Virus genome (UHGV): UHGV-0040698
Source of the DNA: a virus
Reading direction: 5' to 3' (one strand)
DNA length: 20,193 bases
Positions 1-19,942 of the stretch are shown piece after piece. Below the pieces are notes generated by a model, which worked only from the letters and a program-made list of their open reading frames with translations, did not search any database and was not told where the DNA came from. How positions within the stretch are numbered: the first letter of the stretch is position 1; every line of letters starts with the position of its first letter. The position numbers were made by a program, and so were the translations under genes.

Positions 1-205
1 GTGGCTTATGAAGACATTACTAACATCGGGGTGTACTAATCAACGGGGAGCAGGTCAGGGTGGCGAAGTAACCACTCTTAACACAGTAAACGAGAAAATG
101 CGGACCGCGTAAGTTTTTTTTGATAGATTATGCATATGCAACGAACCCAGGATCATTAACAAATCACAACCCATTGATTCAAAAGGATAATAAAGGGTAA
201 TTTTA

Positions 206-1138
206 ATGACTACTACAGCCACTTCCGCGCCACTAACTAAACAAAAAAAAATGCGTATCGGTTTCTTCCAAAGCTCCTCAGGAACGAAGTCAACTACATC
301 AAATGCACAACTTGCATTTGACAACATGTATACAACCATTGTTACACCTTCGCAAAATTCTTATACCGCTGAGTTTGATAAGAAAAAATTAAAGATTGTA
401 TTATTAGAAAAAGACGCACAGGCGGAGTTCTATTTTGGTTATCTATCATGCTCTCGTGATGGTTTCCACTTACCTTATATTGGTGATGAAAATTGGGATG
501 AGCACAATATTCCGTTAGATGATAAAAAATATATAGTCGAACGCACTTATTTTATTTACTACTATAAGAAAGACATTCTTGTTTTATCTCAAAATCATTT
601 AGGACCTAAAGTTTCCGATTTAGCATTTCTTTTATTCAATTTTTCTGAAGAAAACAAACCTGTAGCGTTTGAGGCAATTTGGAAAAAAGAAAGTGTAAAA
701 GAACTACTTGAAACAGGAAGCACTTTACGTAGCTGTGAAATTACACTCGCCGCTCCACGTAATTTTAGCGCAACGGATTATGACCTTTCGAATTCATTTT
801 CCAAAAGTATGATTGAAATGATGGCTGGGATGGGCGGTTCGCATTTAAAACTATCACTTAGAGGTAGAGCATCGCAACGTAAATTAATCCGTGGTTATCT
901 CAGTGATGAAGTAAAAAGTGGAATAAAGGAATTAATAGAAAAAGTTCCTCACTTATTACGTAAAGCTAATGTCACTGAACCTAAAAATACTCATTCAAGG
1001 AGTCTTCTCAATCAAGTTCTGATCAGTGAAAAAAACATTAACACAAAAGATGGCTACGCAAAAGAAACAGATGTGCGTACTGCCTTGATCAGTGCTAAAA
1101 TTGAACATGGTCAGTATTTAAAGCAATATGAAATCTGA
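206..1138 (+). CDS. Hypothetical 310-aa protein; candidate RexA-like sensor of a two-gene module
   Basis: ATG at 206 with AAGGG upstream; long ORF in visibly AT-rich DNA; immediately followed on the same strand by a small 4-TM membrane protein gene; no catalytic motif recognised. Confidence 0.6.
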   Translation: MTTTATSAPLTKQKKMRIGFFQSSSGTKSTTSNAQLAFDNMYTTIVTPSQNSYTAEFDKKKLKIVLLEKDAQAEFYFGYLSCSRDGFHLPYIGDENWDEHNIPLDDKKYIVERTYFIYYYKKDILVLSQNHLGPKVSDLAFLLFNFSEENKPVAFEAIWKKESVKELLETGSTLRSCEITLAAPRNFSATDYDLSNSFSKSMIEMMAGMGGSHLKLSLRGRASQRKLIRGYLSDEVKSGIKELIEKVPHLLRKANVTEPKNTHSRSLLNQVLISEKNINTKDGYAKETDVRTALISAKIEHGQYLKQYEI

Positions 1139-1161
1139 TCTTATTTTTAAGGATGATGATT

Positions 1162-1605
1162 ATGCTTATTAAAGTTTTAATTAACATAGTTATCAGTGGG
1201 CTGTTAGCTTGGGTGCTTGGGAAATACCTAGCGCCTATGGCTCACTCTGATATCTTAAGTACAGCCGGAGTGTTATCTACGGTGGCAGGCATTTTGTTTG
1301 GTTTTGTATTGGCCGCTATTTCCATCTTCAGTTCTGCAAGTTCAAGTACTGATGGAATTATTTTTGCTTTAAAACAAAACAAGATTTTACCTAAAATTAT
1401 TCATAACCTGTTATCTACGGGAGTTACCTTAATATTAGCATGTATTTTCCCGCTGATAGCAATGTTTATAAATGAAAAAATCACCATTACCTCTGTAAGA
1501 CTTGATTTCGCCCTAACCTTATATGGTTTCTCGACCCTGATCGTATCAATAGTTTCATTTGCAAGTACCTGGAGGAAAATAAACTGGATATTACCCCACA
1601 TATAA
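1162..1605 (+). CDS. Small four-helix membrane protein (147 aa); candidate RexB-like effector
   Basis: AAGGA Shine-Dalgarno 8 nt before ATG at 1162 (track start 1153 sits directly on the SD); four hydrophobic segments of ~20 aa; gene pair architecture matches lambda RexA/RexB. Confidence 0.6.
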   Translation: MLIKVLINIVISGLLAWVLGKYLAPMAHSDILSTAGVLSTVAGILFGFVLAAISIFSSASSSTDGIIFALKQNKILPKIIHNLLSTGVTLILACIFPLIAMFINEKITITSVRLDFALTLYGFSTLIVSIVSFASTWRKINWILPHI

Positions 1606-1608
1606 TAT

Positions 1609-1634
1609 TAAGCAGGTGCAAGCACACCTGCTTA
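1609..1634. terminator. Strong hairpin between convergent genes (possible bidirectional terminator)
   Basis: 10-bp perfect stem TAAGCAGGTG/CACCTGCTTA with 6-nt loop, 4 nt after the stop at 1603-1605 and 15 nt before the Q stop; no clean U-tract on either side. Confidence 0.4.
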
Positions 1635-1648
1635 TCCAAACCAAGATA

Positions 1649-2011
1649 TTAATCCATATCTAAGCTAACATTTAGAATAGCTAGACAACCTTCTATAAAT
1701 CCCTCAGCCATCTGTATCTCAATGCGTATTATTTTCTCATCCTTTTTGCGAGCTTTAGCGAGCTTTCTTTTAGAGATACCGTATAGGTAATGGGCAACAA
1801 GAAGCGAGTGTTCTTCAGGTCTTTTTTGCTTTAGACGAGCAAGACAACCTTCAATAATTAATGCATCACTATCTGAACAAGCCTGACGTGTTTTGCTTGT
1901 ATAGGGAAGAAGCCCTTTAAACCCAGCAGCTATAGGCGAATAGTCTACCCCAGAACTATCACTCGCCGCCCATGCACCCCAACGATCCAGAACCATCTGA
2001 ATATCACGCAT
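1649..2011 (-). CDS. Antitermination protein Q (phage 82 / QuuD-like Q family)
   Basis: Product begins MRDIQMVLDRWGAWAA...IAAGFKGL, the characteristic N-terminus of enterobacterial prophage Q proteins; track start at 2026 adds 5 residues; last gene of the minus-strand operon. Confidence 0.8.
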   Translation of the reverse strand: MRDIQMVLDRWGAWAASDSSGVDYSPIAAGFKGLLPYTSKTRQACSDSDALIIEGCLARLKQKRPEEHSLLVAHYLYGISKRKLAKARKKDEKIIRIEIQMAEGFIEGCLAILNVSLDMD

Positions 2012-2028
2012 CAACTTTCTCCACAAAA

Positions 2029-3024
2029 TCAGGCCAGCACGCCAGTTGCCAGCGCGCGATCGATAAAACGAAATATCAGCTCCAGCTGGGAGCCATACTT
2101 CTCTTCAAATGCCACGGTATCCGCATGCAGCTCGTCGTGATGCTTTCTGCACAAAGGCAACACAAAGAGATCATGCGCTTTTGTACCCATTCCACCCTGA
2201 CCGTGGCCTATCAGGTGGTGGGGATCATCAGCAGGCTTTCCACAACATGCACACGGCTGCGTCTTAACCCAGCGCGTGTACTTTTCATTAACCCAGCGGC
2301 GACGTTTTGGGCGTAACATAAAAGACTCCGGCGACTCTGGATCCACTTTCAGCGCCAGCACCTTTTTCGCTTTATCCTGGATAATGCTGGTGGCAGGAAC
2401 CGAAGGAACAAGGTCACTCTCCCGGGTGACAGACGGCACAACAGGCTTAGGTAATCTCAGTGCCTTACGGGCTGCACTTTCCGGTAAGGCATCAGCCAGG
2501 TCATTACGAACCAGCCACCAGCACAGTTCCGGCATTGTTACAACGTGACTATCATCAAAACCGAGATCACGGCGCACAACAGATAACACCCAGCGGGCAC
2601 AGTTATCCGTTGCCATTGATTCCAGCCGTTCCGTGAACTGATCGCGCAGCTGGTTATCGCAGTGCCAGCACAGACGGATTGCGCCCGGCGCGTGTCGCAT
2701 TGTGGTCATGTTCTCGCTGTGCCAGTCAGAATGGGGCCACTGGCAGCCTTTTTCACGAAGTAACCAGCTTTCAAGACATTCCACTCCACCAGCACGACGG
2801 ATTACTGCCTCATTGCGGAACACGGCCCGAACGGCAGGATCATCCGCCAGCGGTTGTGATGCCGCCGGAACGGCACCACTGGCGAAAGATGAATAACGTT
2901 CCGGCTCAGGCTCCAGCAGGACACGCCCCTGCATAAACAGGGGCATCAGCTCTGAACCTGGTCTGAACAATACGATCCCCATACGCGGGGCAATTTCAGG
3001 GGTCAGTAGTGCTCTCACGGTCAC
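2029..3024 (-). CDS. DUF968-family phage protein (YdfU-like) with Cys/His-rich HNH-like C-terminus
   Basis: C-terminal CACCGKPADDPHHL...CRKHHDELH motif typical of DUF968 prophage proteins; track start is GTG at 3024 and true start is uncertain (next ATG at 2982 lacks SD). Confidence 0.7.
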   Translation of the reverse strand: MTVRALLTPEIAPRMGIVLFRPGSELMPLFMQGRVLLEPEPERYSSFASGAVPAASQPLADDPAVRAVFRNEAVIRRAGGVECLESWLLREKGCQWPHSDWHSENMTTMRHAPGAIRLCWHCDNQLRDQFTERLESMATDNCARWVLSVVRRDLGFDDSHVVTMPELCWWLVRNDLADALPESAARKALRLPKPVVPSVTRESDLVPSVPATSIIQDKAKKVLALKVDPESPESFMLRPKRRRWVNEKYTRWVKTQPCACCGKPADDPHHLIGHGQGGMGTKAHDLFVLPLCRKHHDELHADTVAFEEKYGSQLELIFRFIDRALATGVLA

Positions 3025-8034: not shown

Positions 8035-8709
8035 ATGAAAACAATCCATGACATCCGGCGGTCTAACGCCAGAAAACTGAGAGATGGTGTTGGCGGGAAT
8101 TCTTCCTTTGCCACTATGATTGATCGCGAGCCAACCCAGACCAGCAGGTTTATGGGAGATGGTGCTACTAAAAATATCGGTGACAGCATGGCACGACACA
8201 TCGAAAAATGTTTCGACCTGCCTGTCGGATGGCTCGATCAAGAACACCAGACAACGAACATCACAAAAAAACCTGATGTTTCAATCACTAATAAACAAAT
8301 CACATTAGTCCCTGTCATATCATGGGTACAGGCCGGAGCATGGAAAGAAGTTGGATATTCTGAGGTTGATTTGAGCACAGCAGAAACGTATCCCTGCCCT
8401 GTACCCTGTGGGGAAATGACTTATATCTTGCGGGTGATAGGTGATTCAATGATTGATGAGTACCGCCCGGGAGACATGATTTTTGTCGATCCTGAAGTAC
8501 CTGCCTGCCACGGTGACGACGTTATTGCATTGATGCACGATACAGGCGAAACCACCTTCAAAAGGTTGATAGAAGATGGGACACAGCGTTATCTCAAAGC
8601 GTTAAACCCAAACTGGCCTGAGCCTTACATTAAGATCAACGGTAATTGCTCTATAATTGGTACAGTGATTTTCTCAGGAAAACCAAGAAGATACAAAATC
8701 AAAGCCTAA
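8035..8709 (+). CDS. cI-like prophage repressor with S24 (LexA-type) autopeptidase domain
   Basis: C-terminal GDSM...FKRL Ser/Lys dyad spacing typical of S24 peptidases; N-terminal CI-type DNA-binding region; divergent from the cro-like gene. Confidence 0.85.
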   Translation: MKTIHDIRRSNARKLRDGVGGNSSFATMIDREPTQTSRFMGDGATKNIGDSMARHIEKCFDLPVGWLDQEHQTTNITKKPDVSITNKQITLVPVISWVQAGAWKEVGYSEVDLSTAETYPCPVPCGEMTYILRVIGDSMIDEYRPGDMIFVDPEVPACHGDDVIALMHDTGETTFKRLIEDGTQRYLKALNPNWPEPYIKINGNCSIIGTVIFSGKPRRYKIKA

Positions 8710-13757: not shown

Positions 13758-13806
13758 TGGTGCCGATAATAGGAGTCGAACCTACGACCTTCGCATTACG
13801 AATGCG
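13758..13806 (-). other. Partial tRNA-Thr(CGU) (thrW) 3' end, 49 nt: attachment-site core
   Basis: Minus strand reads CGCATTCGTAATGCGAAGGTCGTAGGTTCGACTCCTATTATCGGCACCA = anticodon loop (CGT), T-arm and acceptor 3' strand of E. coli thrW; the 5' half of the tRNA is absent. Confidence 0.75.
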
Positions 13807-13894
13807 TAAATTGATCTTGTAAAATCAATACCTATCGAATTTAAATGGATTTTTTGCCACAATATTGCCACAGTTCGTTAGGAATCAGACAGAA

Positions 13895-14968
13895 ATGGCG
13901 ACTATACGCAAACGTGGTAACTACCAATGGGAAGCTCAAATCCGTAAACGAGGTTTTCCCTCTCAAACCAAAACCTTTAACACCAAAGTAGAAGCAGAAG
14001 CTTGGGCCAAAATGATCGAGTCAGAAATGGCGAGAGGAGTTTGGCTTAGCCGCAGCGAAGCGGAATCTACGACATTGTATGAAGCCCTAACGCGATATGA
14101 AAAAGAGATTGTTCCCGACAAAAAAGGGGCAGTGCAAGACCAATCATTGGTGCGGATACTAAAAGGCACTCAGCTGGCGAAAAACTATATGGCCAGCATC
14201 AGGAGTGCCGATGTCGCCAAGCTGAGAGATGAATGGTTGAAAATCTATGCCCCTGCAACCGTTTTAAGGCGTTTGGCCTTACTTTCTCATGTATTCAACG
14301 TTTCGCGGAAAGAATGGGGCATGGAGAGCCTGCTGAACCCCGTAGAGGCCATTCGCAAACCTCAACCCAAGAACTCCAGGACCAGACGCCTGGAAGCGCT
14401 GCCTGTAGTTTCTGAGAAAACCGGTGTTACGTCAGGAAAGGAAATAGCCAACGAGATCGAACATATCATCGCCGCAACACATTCATTAGTATTGCCAGCA
14501 ATCATTCTTCTGGCGTTAGAGACAGCCATGCGCCGTAGCGAAATCGCAGATCTTCGATGGCGCTTTATCGATCTTGATCGGCGAGTTGCACATCTGCCGG
14601 ATACTAAGAATGGTAATGCCCGCGATGTCCCTTTATCAACGAAAGCCATCACGATACTGTCCAGTCTCAAGGAACATTCTAAGCCAGCTGCTGATAAGGT
14701 TTTTGATATGCGTGCAGACGCGATTACCCGAGCTTTTGACCGAGCTGTAAAACGAGCCAGAGAACGATACGAGAAAACAAACTCATTATGTGATGAATCA
14801 TTCCTTAAAGATTTAAGATTTCATGACCTTCGACATGAAGCAACTTCTCGACTTGCTGAAATTTTCCCTATGCATGAACTGACCAAAATTACAGGACATA
14901 AAGATCCAAGAATGCTAATGCGGTATTATCATCCAAAAGCTGAAGATTTGGCGTTAAAGTTGAAATAA
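13895..14968 (+). CDS. Tyrosine recombinase / integrase of the second island
   Basis: Catalytic R (ETAMRRSE), HxxR (FHDLRHEATS) and Y (LMRYYH); ATG at 13895 (the track start 13865 is a TTG). Confidence 0.85.
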   Translation: MATIRKRGNYQWEAQIRKRGFPSQTKTFNTKVEAEAWAKMIESEMARGVWLSRSEAESTTLYEALTRYEKEIVPDKKGAVQDQSLVRILKGTQLAKNYMASIRSADVAKLRDEWLKIYAPATVLRRLALLSHVFNVSRKEWGMESLLNPVEAIRKPQPKNSRTRRLEALPVVSEKTGVTSGKEIANEIEHIIAATHSLVLPAIILLALETAMRRSEIADLRWRFIDLDRRVAHLPDTKNGNARDVPLSTKAITILSSLKEHSKPAADKVFDMRADAITRAFDRAVKRARERYEKTNSLCDESFLKDLRFHDLRHEATSRLAEIFPMHELTKITGHKDPRMLMRYYHPKAEDLALKLK

Positions 14969-14977
14969 GGACGTTAT

Positions 14978-15868
14978 ATGGAATATAAAAATAATTTGGT
15001 TGACGCATCATCCAAATTAAACAACCCTCAACTATTGGCTATAATATACTTAATACCTTTTGGATACTTGATTGTAGAAAACCCATTATGGCTAGAAAAT
15101 ATATACATTGCCGCTCCAATTTTTCTATCATCTATAGCTTTATTAACCAGTGTATACATAGGATATCGTGATTTATTAAATAAAGTATTTAATAATACAG
15201 TGGTTAAGTGGGGCGTAACTGGCTTTACATATTCAGTATGCTTATGGATCGCAAAGTTTAAGCTTGACATAGCTTATGGTATAGCCCCAGAAAATCTTAA
15301 TTACTCAACATTAGCTTATGCTTTCATGCTCTCATTTCCAATAGGAGCAATGATTTGTGCAACTACAGTCTATATATACATATTTTTGCGAGATGTATCC
15401 CCAGCAAAAATAGTAATATCCTCTATGATTTCAGTATATATTGGAAACTTGGCTCAACATCATATACAAGTGAACAATCTTCCTGAAAAAATAATATTAA
15501 TAGGACTCATAATTATGGTCCCCTATAACATGGTCAATCTAGCCAGTTCATTAGTTATTAAAAGGAAATTTAATTTTAATCGTTTAGTATCAGGCTTATC
15601 CCTTTTTGCTGTGTCAGTTGCTCTTTTTATTATTAGCATGACAGCAATGAAATATATTGAAAGATTTCAAGAAAAGTTTATTTTTCTTGATGCAAGAACA
15701 TCTACGACATGTGGTAGCGCAGAAAGCAAATCTCTTTATATTGAAAAAAATGAAAATCAGTGTTATAAAATATCAGGAAATAAATTCTCGGAGTTAAGAC
15801 TAACTCTTGTAGATAAAAACATCCCGAATATAAATAATAAGGGCACTTCAACTTATGAACAAAAATAA
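14978..15868 (+). CDS. Polytopic membrane protein of unknown function (296 aa)
   Basis: AGGA SD 8 nt before ATG, 9 nt after the integrase stop; multiple hydrophobic segments; strongly AT-rich. Confidence 0.65.
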   Translation: MEYKNNLVDASSKLNNPQLLAIIYLIPFGYLIVENPLWLENIYIAAPIFLSSIALLTSVYIGYRDLLNKVFNNTVVKWGVTGFTYSVCLWIAKFKLDIAYGIAPENLNYSTLAYAFMLSFPIGAMICATTVYIYIFLRDVSPAKIVISSMISVYIGNLAQHHIQVNNLPEKIILIGLIIMVPYNMVNLASSLVIKRKFNFNRLVSGLSLFAVSVALFIISMTAMKYIERFQEKFIFLDARTSTTCGSAESKSLYIEKNENQCYKISGNKFSELRLTLVDKNIPNINNKGTSTYEQK

Positions 15869-16082
15869 CCCTGCTAATTCATTTTCTATAGAAGCAAGGA
15901 AAGAAGCTTTTCGGAGAGCTGAAGCCAGTCTTTTTTTATCAAGTAAAGATCCCAAAGGCTCCTCATTTTTTAATGAAATAAAAAATAAGGTAATCAATGG
16001 AGAGCTAACCTATGAAGAGGCAAAGAGAGAAGTGTTAAATCATCACATTGAACAATCTAAAAATAAAATTAAAAAAGGCTAA
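15855..16082 (+). CDS. Small charged protein (75 aa), unknown function
   Basis: ATG overlaps the end of the membrane-protein gene by 14 nt; weak SD. Confidence 0.45.
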   Translation: MNKNNPANSFSIEARKEAFRRAEASLFLSSKDPKGSSFFNEIKNKVINGELTYEEAKREVLNHHIEQSKNKIKKG

Positions 16083-16342
16083 CATCCAGTTAGCTGTATT
16101 AGCTCAGGCTCGAACTGACAGTTTGCGTAGGCAAAATGCAACCAAATCTGACAGTCTGCTTTGAGCGAGGAGCGGACGTTAGTAATTGTATCGTCGTGGG
16201 CGCATTATTATTTTTCTATTCAACTAAATGTGATAGGGGTGTCTTTTAGTGTTGTTTCTATTGTTCACAAAGGCTTCAATTTGATATGAAGCCCTTATTT
16301 AAGAATTTAGGGCTAGGATGCTTTTGCGTAGCATTGCTATTA

Positions 16343-17296
16343 TTATTTAGGGCGGGCTGATGTTAATGTCGCTAGCAAGGTTGGCATGAACCATTCTCTA
16401 ACAAGCTCCTCATACATATTTGAAAGATTTGTTAACTTATGCCAAACCACTTCGGAACAGTAACTCAAAAAATGTTCATAATGTTCAGGTTTTACCTCTT
16501 TATCAATATCTATTTGAAGTTGGATCAACTCCTTTTGGCTCGATACCATCGGCTTCCAAAATTCATGACCAGACCATATATCTTGTCTAAGAGCAATTAC
16601 AATAAAGTTATTTACCATCTCTATAGCTTCATCGAAAGAGACAGGAAATTGTACGGCCGCTTTACCTTGTAATCGGTTTATTTCTTTTAATTGATAGTTA
16701 AAAAGTGAGAATGCGCCATACATTTTTGATCTTTTACCATATGCACGTAATGGAACAAGCGCATCTTCATCATCCAGAATTTCATTTTCAAGAGGTATAT
16801 ATATAGTCTTTGAGTCTTTTTTAGAATAATTCGGGTCTTCTGGTATGAGAACTTTATCTATGTAATCATTAAGGCAAATAAAAAATGCCTTTTCTGTATT
16901 AGTGTCAACTAGTATCAATAATACTGGAATTGCAATACCTATAGACTGAACAGTCAAAATGTCTGATATATCTAACTTGAATTTTGCGACAGGGATTTCG
17001 ACAAAATCGCTTTTATCTTCTGTTAACTTTCCTTTGGTTACATTTCCACGAGCATAGGCTTTACGTGTACAATATTCAATACAATCTGAAGATTTTAGTT
17101 GTACAAAGAAGTTTTCACCAAGGGTTTCTGCAATACTTTCACTGTCATCAATAAAATCAAATAATTCAACAACGCAATCAATACCATAGTCAGCGCCATA
17201 GCTATGTACGACCCATTCGCGAGGTAGTTTTTCCCGCAGAACCCTGATTGAAATGTCTTCTTTTACCTGGCTAATAGACCGTCTTTTCTTTGGCAT
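16343..17296 (-). CDS. DUF4365-like (PD-(D/E)xK nuclease-like N-terminus) protein, 317 aa
   Basis: Strong GGAGG SD; N-terminal HSYGADYGIDCVVELFD...FFVQLKSS pattern resembling DUF4365; AT-rich. Confidence 0.65.
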   Translation of the reverse strand: MPKKRRSISQVKEDISIRVLREKLPREWVVHSYGADYGIDCVVELFDFIDDSESIAETLGENFFVQLKSSDCIEYCTRKAYARGNVTKGKLTEDKSDFVEIPVAKFKLDISDILTVQSIGIAIPVLLILVDTNTEKAFFICLNDYIDKVLIPEDPNYSKKDSKTIYIPLENEILDDEDALVPLRAYGKRSKMYGAFSLFNYQLKEINRLQGKAAVQFPVSFDEAIEMVNNFIVIALRQDIWSGHEFWKPMVSSQKELIQLQIDIDKEVKPEHYEHFLSYCSEVVWHKLTNLSNMYEELVREWFMPTLLATLTSARPK

Positions 17297-17472
17297 GTTA
17301 CCTCCTAAAATTACAAATTAAAAAACAGATCTTACACTCGAATGCTTAAAATGTCCGCTTCTGACACAGGGCTGCTGTTGCAGCCCTGACAACCTCGTAA
17401 CATTCCCCCCTTCATTATTAGTTTTAAATCTTGTCAATTTTCTTCTTTCAAGAATATGCTTGCATCAAGCAA

Positions 17473-18867
17473 TCACGGCTTTTCCTTGGCTTTGAGTTTA
17501 TCGGCGACATCTGGAACAATACTAAACTCGGTTACTGATGCAAGTACCTGGTTTTTCCATTGGGTCTCACAGATGATCTCTCCATTGTGTTCAAACCAAT
17601 GTGTTGCCCCCGGCAGGAAATCATGGGACATTGGATAAGCAGCATTAGGGTTATGAAATACTTCAAGTTCAAAACACCAAAATTCTTTGCCATCGCAAAG
17701 ATTAATATATTCAGGCGATTGAATATCTAGATCGAAGTCAATTGGTTCCAAGGCCCCTTCAGTCCTATCAAATAAAATCCCAACCCTGCGGGCTTTCACA
17801 ATAGGTGAGGAAAATTCAGCTTGGATTGCCATTCGCTGGAATTTTGGCAATGTTCCAGCATTACTAAACAAGATAGCAGATAAATTTTCAATCTCTGGGT
17901 GGTTAAATAGTCCTGCCGGAATATTTACATGGCCTAAAAGCTTTTCAATTGATAATGCAGCAGCCTTCATACCTTTGGATGTTTTGACTGTATGTGCGGT
18001 TTGCCCATACAAATAGGTTGGAAGTGACTCGCGAGACCAGACCATAGTGCCCCCACCGCTAAAATCCGCTATAGCGATTGCAAATGGAAATCCTTTAACA
18101 TGCGGTAGTTCTTCATACTTTCTCTGGAGTTTAGATCTGATGGTCTTAGCGAACCGTGCTGCCATATCACCTGCTGTGCGAGCTAATCGATCTCCGGGGG
18201 GGAATTGTGTTTGAGGCAACTTTAGGCTGCCCGGACCAGTTGGATTCGCGGTGACCGCCTCAACATATGCTTTGTTATTACCGTTCATGAGCATAAAATC
18301 CGGAGATGGATAATCTTGAAAAACTTTAATTCCCTGCTCTTTAAAACATGCGAAAAGGTATAGCTCCCAGATTCTAGAGTTGAATCCTTGGGTCTGGAGA
18401 TCGGTTCTGAAGTTATCATCAGGTTTTGGTAATGCCAGATAGAGCTCGACAATTAAATGAAATGCTCCTCGGTACTTTATCGTGGACGATAATTGTATAA
18501 ATGCCTGACAAACATTCCGCTCACCAACATGATCCAGTCGGGCTCTACGTGATTGCCCAGATGGAATCGGTAATAAATCTCCTCCGGCTGAAAGGTGCTT
18601 ATCAAGATGCACCAATGCCTCCTGCTCGGTAAAACACATCTCATGCTCGAGAGGTACCAGCACATAATCTTCCCGTCGCCTGAGCACAACAAGGCCATAT
18701 GAATTTTTGCTGTATTGAAGGACTGCACCATATCCAAGCCCTTTTTCATTTGACCAAGCGGAAAGTAATTCCGCATTACCATAATTAGGCCCATGTGGCA
18801 ATGACATTGCAAATATCTTAAATGCTTCAGTAGGCATTCTTTGTAGGCTATAGATCTTATTAGACAT
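17473..18867 (-). CDS. Hypothetical protein (464 aa), second gene of a two-gene operon
   Basis: GGAGAG SD 8 nt before ATG 18867 (the track's ATG 18873 is only 2 nt from the SD); 22 nt after the upstream gene; no named motif. Confidence 0.65.
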   Translation of the reverse strand: MSNKIYSLQRMPTEAFKIFAMSLPHGPNYGNAELLSAWSNEKGLGYGAVLQYSKNSYGLVVLRRREDYVLVPLEHEMCFTEQEALVHLDKHLSAGGDLLPIPSGQSRRARLDHVGERNVCQAFIQLSSTIKYRGAFHLIVELYLALPKPDDNFRTDLQTQGFNSRIWELYLFACFKEQGIKVFQDYPSPDFMLMNGNNKAYVEAVTANPTGPGSLKLPQTQFPPGDRLARTAGDMAARFAKTIRSKLQRKYEELPHVKGFPFAIAIADFSGGGTMVWSRESLPTYLYGQTAHTVKTSKGMKAAALSIEKLLGHVNIPAGLFNHPEIENLSAILFSNAGTLPKFQRMAIQAEFSSPIVKARRVGILFDRTEGALEPIDFDLDIQSPEYINLCDGKEFWCFELEVFHNPNAAYPMSHDFLPGATHWFEHNGEIICETQWKNQVLASVTEFSIVPDVADKLKAKEKP

Positions 18868-18889
18868 TTTCATCTCTCCATAGATAATC

Positions 18890-19942
18890 CTAAAATTCAG
18901 TTAAATTGAAGCTTCCTTGATTTAGATGACATATTTCTGGGACGACCGATTCTGATATACCTTCACTTTCATGAATCCCTAGTGTTACTACTGTACTAAG
19001 CTCAGGAAACAATCTTCTCTTTGTTTTTGGTTTAATTTTTATATGTGAGATCATCTCCAAAAATCTGGAGGTTGTATAAATTGTGTCATAATGAGCAGAT
19101 CCTTCGCCATCGTCATACCATGAGCCTGTATCCACTACTACAGTGTTAAGTAATGGTGCTATTAAATTGAAATTATCAGTGCGAATAGAGACTGCAAACT
19201 TGAAGGGATAAGAATCTTGCTGTGCAAAGTAATCCTCACCACGCCCGTATTGCCTAGTAATTTCAACTATTCCGCGCACCAAAAGATAAATATAATTTTC
19301 GTCAAGGTTCAGCAACTCAATGGATTCAACATTGCACCAATCAACAGTTGTTTGTGAAGATAATATATCCAGTTCGTCAGGGATATTATTCATTGTGATG
19401 TCAGTAACTTCATTCTGTACTTCCTCGATTATTGATTCGGTAATAACACGCTCAAGTTCATCGAAGGTATCGAATATTATGTTACACAGTTCTATTATTA
19501 GTTTAGCACTCTCAAAAAACTGTTTGGGGTTACTATCAAATGAATGTTCGCTAATATGGGTGTAATCGTTTAAAGAAGAATAGTTTTTATTGAACCATGC
19601 TATACCATCATCTAGTCTTTCGATAGCTACATCATCAAGAAGTTGATCGGGTATATGCTTCTGGGCGATGTATTTTGCTTGCTGTTTACGGGTAACAGTG
19701 GCGTTATTTTTGTTTTTAGTGAACCATGGAGACGCCATAACTCTGTCATTTGGTGCCAGTCGTTTCAGCACATGATTTATTAGCTCACGTATTGCAAATG
19801 CAAAGTTGTTGAAGCGCAGAGGATTACCATGAGAACAATAGTTGCGAAGACTGGCATGTAAGAGTTCATGCTCAAAGTCAGTTTCTAGGTGCTCTTGAAA
19901 CTCCTTGATGAAATCCATTTCAAGCATTTTTTTTAGTTTCAT
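18890..19942 (-). CDS. Hypothetical protein with HEPN-like R-x4-H motif (350 aa)
   Basis: ATG at 19942; N-terminal FAFAIRELINHVL contains R-x4-H; AT-rich; first gene of the operon. Confidence 0.6.
   Translation of the reverse strand: MKLKKMLEMDFIKEFQEHLETDFEHELLHASLRNYCSHGNPLRFNNFAFAIRELINHVLKRLAPNDRVMASPWFTKNKNNATVTRKQQAKYIAQKHIPDQLLDDVAIERLDDGIAWFNKNYSSLNDYTHISEHSFDSNPKQFFESAKLIIELCNIIFDTFDELERVITESIIEEVQNEVTDITMNNIPDELDILSSQTTVDWCNVESIELLNLDENYIYLLVRGIVEITRQYGRGEDYFAQQDSYPFKFAVSIRTDNFNLIAPLLNTVVVDTGSWYDDGEGSAHYDTIYTTSRFLEMISHIKIKPKTKRRLFPELSTVVTLGIHESEGISESVVPEICHLNQGSFNLTEF

Follow-up and report, generated by a model that had tools for sequence, protein, structure and literature searches.

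A Q21-family antiterminator gene set apart from its candidate late promoter by convergent cargo in a lambdoid prophage with an insertion sequence at the predicted late leader

We analysed a 20,193-nucleotide stretch of viral DNA (UHGV virus genome UHGV-0040698; hereafter the window), at the left end of which a Q antiterminator gene faces a convergent gene pair. The region is very probably the late-control region of an SfV/cdtI-like lambdoid prophage, with the normal layout of its family plus one private disruption. The original prediction had described a Q gene with no late genes downstream and had concluded that the prophage was either truncated or had its late region replaced by accessory cargo. 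What is unusual here is an insertion sequence (IS) at the late leader, which that prediction missed.

The Q antiterminator gene and the early region

1649–2014, minus strand: Q antiterminator of the Q21/Q933W family, 121 aa from the ATG at 2014
2029–3024, minus strand: DUF968/HNH-like gene directly upstream of Q (PF06147, E 4e-81)

The assignment of a Q antiterminator to 1606–2026 was borne out. The open reading frame (ORF) is open from a TTG at 2026 (1649–2026, minus strand), and RefSeq relatives use the ATG at 2014. In profile searches the protein matched Pfam PF06530 (Phage_antitermQ) end to end, covering model positions 1–118 of 118 with an E value of 3.7e-52, and phrog_79 with an E value of 1.9e-44. 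PF06530 corresponds to the Q21/Q933W family (Yin, Kaelber & Ebright, bioRxiv 10.1101/651190). The sequence match to the Q21 structures 6p18/6jnx is weak (E 4e-4, residues 9–87), and the protein is 100% identical to the Q of intact prophages. By family, the window encodes an intact Q21/Q933W-type antiterminator, and antitermination activity is predicted for it.

The DUF968/HNH-like gene followed by Q is a gene order common to all relatives compared. With this gene closing the early operon ahead of Q, the early region is unbroken. From Q to the integrase, the order and lengths of the ORFs equal those of intact relatives, and no decay of the remaining genes by frameshift or truncation was found over this interval. 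A repressor homologue lies at 8035–8709, about 6.4 kb from the gene pair that faces Q.

A second integrative island was observed directly after the prophage integrase (window 13865–19942). It has its own integrase (13865–14968) with a VbhA-family antitoxin neighbour, and three genes on the minus strand encoding a DUF4365 protein (16343–17296), a 466-aa hypothetical protein (17473–18873) and a 350-aa protein (18890–19942); an identical copy of the last in TUM10008 is annotated by RefSeq as a pPIWI-associating nuclease, and the island may be a short-Argonaute-type defence locus. At the integrase/island junction of TUM10008, RefSeq annotates a 112-nt 'tRNA-Ser' (L005, 20059–20170, corresponding to window positions of about 13758–13870); ARAGORN found no tRNA anywhere in the window.

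A hairpin and a convergent gene pair follow Q

1609–1634: hairpin between the convergent genes, stem of 10–11 bp
1153–1605, plus strand: small membrane protein of 147–150 aa with four hydrophobic segments, second cargo gene (phrog_8552, E 7e-60)
206–1138, plus strand: DUF6731 protein of 310 aa with a RexA/RdgC-like fold by fold comparison, first cargo gene
122–205, plus strand: cargo-specific upstream region with a sigma-70-like promoter candidate from a promoter scan, ATCACA-17-GATAAT (163–191)

The strong hairpin that had been placed 15 nt from the end of Q is indeed present, 14 nt beyond the Q stop and 4 nt beyond the stop of the convergent 150-aa ORF. Its folding energy is -15.5 kcal/mol on the plus strand and -17.4 kcal/mol on the minus strand, with z scores of -5.7 and -3.0, respectively. 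On the Q strand it is terminator-like, with the tail AAUAUUAUAUG, and no U-tract was found on the cargo strand. An equivalent terminator stands directly 3' of Q in other cargo cassettes, for example GGGGGAATTACCCCCC plus T7 in mEp460_4F5.

The cassette to which the two genes belong spans about 122–1648 (~1.53 kb), between the Q stop codon and a conserved promoter block described below. Its edges are marked by the loss of conservation, which ends at the Q stop (matches begin at 1650–1653) and, in comparison with prophages with other cargo, near 110–120. Its GC content is 31–39%, versus 52–57% in the adjacent phage genes.

The original prediction had called this pair a convergent Rex-like module. 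The two genes are real, the first with a RexA-like fold and the second encoding a partner with four transmembrane (TM) segments, whereas homology to RexA or RexB in sequence was not found: BLASTP gave E 0.32 for the DUF6731 protein and E 0.9 for the 4-TM protein, hhalign of DUF6731 against RexA returned a probability of 0.4%, and PADLOC, PDB phmmer and NCBIfam were also negative. The signal for the RexA-like fold comes from fold comparison only. The 4-TM protein (150 aa; Kyte-Doolittle segments at about 1–26, 40–58, 86–104 and 117–137) is similar in size and segment placement to lambda RexB (144 aa; about 8–26, 42–66, 84–114 and 116–139), a likeness of topology and not of homology. 'Rex-like' is accordingly used here for fold and architecture, not for proven family membership. 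Phage cdtI carries orthologues of both proteins, 62% identical for DUF6731 and 54% for the 4-TM protein (cdtI orf53). Our literature search on DUF6731 returned no papers. We infer that the cargo module is a defence system.

The hhalign alignment, which is not significant, pairs LGPKVSDLAFLL (DUF6731 residues 132–143, window 599–634) with FGPTTSDLTDFL (lambda RexA residues 108–119) and thereby places a G-P-x-x-S-D-L motif in both proteins. Within the DUF6731 family, G133, P134, D138 and L143 are invariant. The motif may be a functional one shared by DUF6731 and RexA.

Late genes follow the same cargo in related prophages

The segment from window position 60 to 2100 is present at 99.8% identity in 18 complete E. 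coli genomes. In E. coli NJS001 the Q strand continues past the cargo into a 67-aa ORF, a DNA methyltransferase, holin, lysozyme and Rz, and further along into HNH, small and large terminase, portal, protease, capsid and tail genes. An identical DUF6731 protein was found in nine distinct contexts, all nine of which continue into the 67-aa ORF, the methylase, and lysis, terminase and head genes. In phage cdtI, described in the title of its paper as 'An inducible lambdoid prophage...' (as given in the reference list of PMC8065619), the cargo orthologues lie between Q and orf55/methylase/holin, the position that they have in the window. SfIV carries a different convergent cargo at the same position.

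Truncation or replacement had been deduced from the convergent module itself, and this deduction fails, since the same arrangement is followed by late genes in NJS001, in the nine contexts and in cdtI. Lysis and structural genes stand just beyond it in every relative examined; the corresponding side of this genome lies past the IS. It is likewise highly improbable that accessory cargo replaced the late region, with the Rex-like module standing where late genes once were. Within the window the cargo is what comes after Q, and its AT-rich composition fits horizontally acquired DNA, but the ~1.53-kb insertion keeps both flanks and late genes are present in all relatives, so that NJS001, cdtI and the nine DUF6731 contexts already contradict a replacement. 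Because both flanks are kept and late genes follow in relatives, the cargo is better described as a hotspot insertion between Q and the candidate late promoter pR'.

One of the nine contexts, L134 (GCA_974490225.1, 9497–11806), has the identical DUF6731/4-TM cargo together with the short Q, the 67-aa ORF and the methylase, but its backbone is lambda-like and unrelated in other respects, with NinG, NinH, Cro, RecT and a GpA-type terminase; this suggests that the Q-cargo-pR' segment moves as a unit between lambdoid mosaics.

A conserved block beyond the cargo is a candidate pR'-tR' unit

58–121, minus strand: retained upstream half of a candidate late promoter module (pR'), by comparative conservation
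121–114, minus strand: A-run, part of the candidate block
110–99, minus strand: conserved ACGCGGTCCGCA, part of the candidate block
88–83, minus strand: candidate -10 element TACTGT, part of the candidate block
83–60, minus strand: invariant 24-mer TGTTAAGAGTGGTTACTTCGCCAC, part of the candidate block

No pR' in the canonical position, up to about 100 nt past the Q stop, was found in the window; the 24-mer is 1565 nt away from that stop. The alignment of prophages with differing cargo showed a constant order on the late strand: the A-run with ACGCGGTCCGCA, 15 variable bases, the 24-mer, and a GC hairpin with a T-run. The 24-mer occurs once in the window, with a chance expectation of 0 matches, and is present in more than 120 IMG/VR contigs; since loci were gathered by exact match to it, its invariance is partly by construction. 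Each of the seven annotated loci that have the short Q type contains it, whereas the three that have a 250-aa Q, in SfV, Ayreon and the Stx2c phage, lack it. Among about 110 IMG/VR loci, a short PF06530-type Q precedes the 24-mer in the same orientation whenever the upstream sequence is long enough, and the 250-aa type is never paired with it. The short Q homologues so paired are 47–100% identical.

In 45 distinct upstream contexts, the hexamer that ends at the first base of the 24-mer reads T (43/45), A (45/45), n, y, s, T at constant spacing. The critical positions of a sigma-70 -10 element, -12, -11 and -7, show this T-A-n-n-n-T pattern. GT(A/C)CGCA is conserved in the spacer of these contexts, and TTTACA or TTTACG occurs at 16-nt spacing in some sub-families; the -35 is poor in the sub-family of the window, with CTTACG at 19-nt or TTACGC at 18-nt spacing. 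In relatives, a CCCGC..GCGGG terminator with a T-run follows 9–10 nt after the 24-mer, is kept in 61 downstream contexts, and is succeeded by divergence. In SfV, which has the different Q type and the classical layout, the Q stop is followed by 106 nt with TTGCAT-17-TAAGAT and an AACGAT motif, and then by the same terminator as in the family of the window.

We infer that the conserved block comprises pR', the leader and the terminator tR', with the -10 element predicted at 88–83 and a putative start near 76. The assignment of a promoter to 58–121 is based on comparative conservation, as a consensus promoter scan called no late-strand promoter there. An Rfam search of the Q-cargo-leader region of NJS001 gave no match at E up to 1, which argues against the block belonging to a known RNA family (a put-like element, for instance). 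Neither a Q-binding repeat nor a sigma-dependent pause element could be assigned in the block with confidence. Candidates for these elements are the spacer GT(A/C)CGCA and, within the 24-mer, a pair of GTTA repeats at a distance of 10 bp.

These repeats are contained in GTTAAGAG and GTTACTTC, the GTTA cores of which are exactly 10 bp apart (window 82–65, minus strand). The Q-binding element (QBE) of Q21 consists of two directly repeated 8-bp subsites (bioRxiv 10.1101/651190), which the GTTA repeats of the 24-mer recall as a sequence pattern.

The A-run with ACGCGGTCCGCA was also considered as a terminator of the cargo strand and was rejected as the main reading. In cargo-free loci the block lies directly after Q and the A-run represents Lys codons and the stop of Q.

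The Q stop codon is a site of interchangeable cassettes

Between the Q stop and the 24-mer there are 26–37 nt in 14 cargo-free loci and 524–3779 nt in the others, and the ORFs in these long gaps are nearly all on the strand opposite Q. With conserved flanks, the slot shows 48 gap lengths and at least 39 protein clusters. Five of ten sampled alternative cargo proteins matched PADLOC defence or candidate families, the matches being PDC-S60, HEC-04/ATPase-Toprim, NsnA/PD-T4-2_A, PDC-M53A and PDC-M68A/HNH; a KAP NTPase is a further cargo type. Conserved flanks, many unrelated cassettes and some known defence families, by which a phage-borne defence hotspot is recognised, were thus all found at this position. 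A description of a Q-to-pR' slot was not found in the literature that we searched, which is not proof that the slot is undescribed.

A recurring design was noted among unrelated cassettes, in which a soluble protein of about 270–360 aa is followed by a multi-TM protein of about 110–195 aa, sometimes with a middle gene of 80–90 aa (IMG/VR loci L009, L019, L068, L069, L076, L087, L098 and L127). This design suggests a common sensor-plus-membrane-effector logic.

In an alternative placement, the 3' end of Q itself would adjoin or contain pR' and the Q-loading site, so that Q-modified polymerase would read antisense through the cargo and the 24-mer block would be leader and terminator only. The phages Ayreon and Stx2c, with the 250-aa Q, do show cargo downstream of pR' in related phages. 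However, the Q stop and the cargo stop are only 14–43 nt apart in four cassettes, leaving too little room for a promoter and a Q-loading site, and the gap is filled by a terminator-like hairpin. Moreover, Q diverges to 47% identity while the 24-mer is exact and has a constrained TAnnnT directly upstream, and in SfIV the block is separated from Q by 2.5 kb and an IS remnant. We therefore regard a pR' at the end of Q as improbable and prefer its placement in the block beyond the cargo.

In Ayreon (L012, 1718–2530) and the Stx2c phage (L013, 1718–2530), a co-oriented 141-aa gene lies between the first terminator after Q and the terminator common to the family of the window, indicating that in the 250-aa Q lineage the same neighbourhood takes cargo downstream of pR'.

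An insertion sequence interrupts the predicted late leader

1–57, minus strand: end of an IS3-family, ISSen4-like IS, comprising the left inverted repeat and 5' leader (57 nt), by multicopy matches

The first 65 to 71 positions of the window match at 94–97% sequences present in up to 20 copies per genome. Copies of this end are inserted in acrR, melB and ugd and adjoin annotated IS3/ISSen4 transposases. The element is of the TG...CA type and ends at ...GGAGCAGGTCA (window 57), and in the alignment prophage sequence is back at 58–60. The transposase gene is read leftward, in the direction of the late operon, from a start codon placed about 15 nt outside the window, past position 1. The IS thus enters at about +19 of the predicted late transcript, between the candidate pR' and tR', and the terminator seen in relatives is cut off. 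Among 5,426 complete E. coli genomes, no carrier of the IS/prophage junction was found and none covers window 1–210, and a 44-nt junction pattern had no match in genome, viral or metagenome contig collections, indicating a private event.

The statement that no late genes lie downstream therefore holds for the 1.6 kb past Q in the window and not as an absence from the genome, because the window stops inside the IS repeat about 90 nt past the cargo upstream region. Draft contigs typically break at IS copies, and a break at this repeated IS would explain where the window begins.

A truncated or cryptic prophage, in which an IS3-family deletion or rearrangement removed tR' and the lysis and structural genes and left a domesticated remnant, is the strongest competing account, although we consider it rather unlikely. 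The IS end adjoins the prophage exactly where late genes should start, at a junction that is private and occurs in none of the 5,426 complete genomes or the contig collections. In addition, TUM10008, in which the right-hand junction and the neighbouring island are 100% identical to the window, carries a related prophage that is heavily deleted and has a Q pseudogene, showing that decay at this locus does occur. Yet the IS end fits a simple insertion of 1.2–1.3 kb equally well, given that draft contigs break at such copies; the early-region ORFs are all full length, with no general decay; and late genes are present in every other carrier of the exact cargo. A normal late-control region with one private IS thus remains our preferred reading.

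Proposed course of late transcription

On this preferred reading, a Q21-family Q would act at a pR'-tR' unit that does not always lie directly after Q in this lineage. The slot at the Q stop codon would take interchangeable AT-rich cassettes, almost always transcribed opposite Q, and that of the window would be a RexAB-like pair bringing a hairpin that ends Q-strand transcription. Late transcription would begin anew at pR' beyond the cargo, with a predicted start near 76. Without Q it would stop at tR' about 45–50 nt downstream, whereas Q would let it proceed into the 67-aa ORF, the DNA methylase, and the lysis and structural genes. Here, pR' and tR' would be parted at about +19 by an element of the IS3 family whose transposase is oriented as the late operon is. 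Given a simple IS insertion, Q-modified polymerase might still read through the IS in sense orientation as far as the late genes.

A wider proposal joins several of these points and, taken as a whole, is tentative and somewhat doubtful. The junction of the Q stop and pR' in Q21-family phages would be a major, hitherto undescribed hotspot for counter-oriented, self-terminated defence cassettes only; the DUF6731 and 4-TM pair would be a distant RexAB homologue that acts from this site in place of the immunity region; and in this genome the late genes may have lost their coupling to Q through the IS at about +19, leaving the cargo fixed within a domesticated remnant.

Comparison with known systems

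Like the Q-dependent late cassette of lambdoid phages (bioRxiv 10.1101/651190), the family of the window has a PF06530 Q and a separate late unit, predicted to consist of a promoter, a short leader and an intrinsic terminator before the lysis and structural genes. The textbook layout of Q followed by pR' is matched by the 14 related loci with the unit 26–37 nt after the Q stop. Different from that cassette, in the window and most relatives Q and the unit are separated by 0.5–3.8 kb of cargo in the opposite orientation. The predicted terminated RNA is short (about 45–50 nt), and the similarity to Q21 itself is weak, as given above.

Stx phages carry accessory genes such as stx between Q and the lysis cassette, an interval that is diverse (review PMC8065619; Zhang et al. 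PMC6266700). Cargo between Q and lysis genes is therefore a known theme, and it is the placement upstream of pR' that differs from stx. The stx genes lie downstream of pR'/tR' and are co-transcribed with late genes under Q control, whereas the window cargo stands upstream of the candidate pR', runs convergently to Q, and carries a candidate promoter region of its own with terminators insulating it, so that its expression should be independent of Q.

The lambda RexA/RexB exclusion system (Adams et al. 2024, PMC11077077) resembles the cargo module in the RexA-like fold and in the adjacent small 4-TM partner encoded downstream. Unlike the module of the window, which stands between Q and the candidate pR', lambda RexAB is located in the immunity region and is co-transcribed with the repressor. 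The slot also resembles the P2/P4 hotspots of antiviral systems (Rousset et al. 2022, PMC9122126) in its conserved flanks and many unrelated cassettes, several of them in known or candidate defence families; it differs in the phage group and in its position at the Q stop codon upstream of pR'.

Implications

In this lineage, a convergent module after Q is no evidence of a dead prophage, and the edges of windows or contigs at IS copies can mimic truncation. The 24-mer block provides a concrete candidate Q-loading site for a large, uncharacterised branch of the Q21 family, and DUF6731 gains its first structural link to RexA. The short Q gene and the exact 24-mer together offer searchable anchors for prophage-borne defence candidates.
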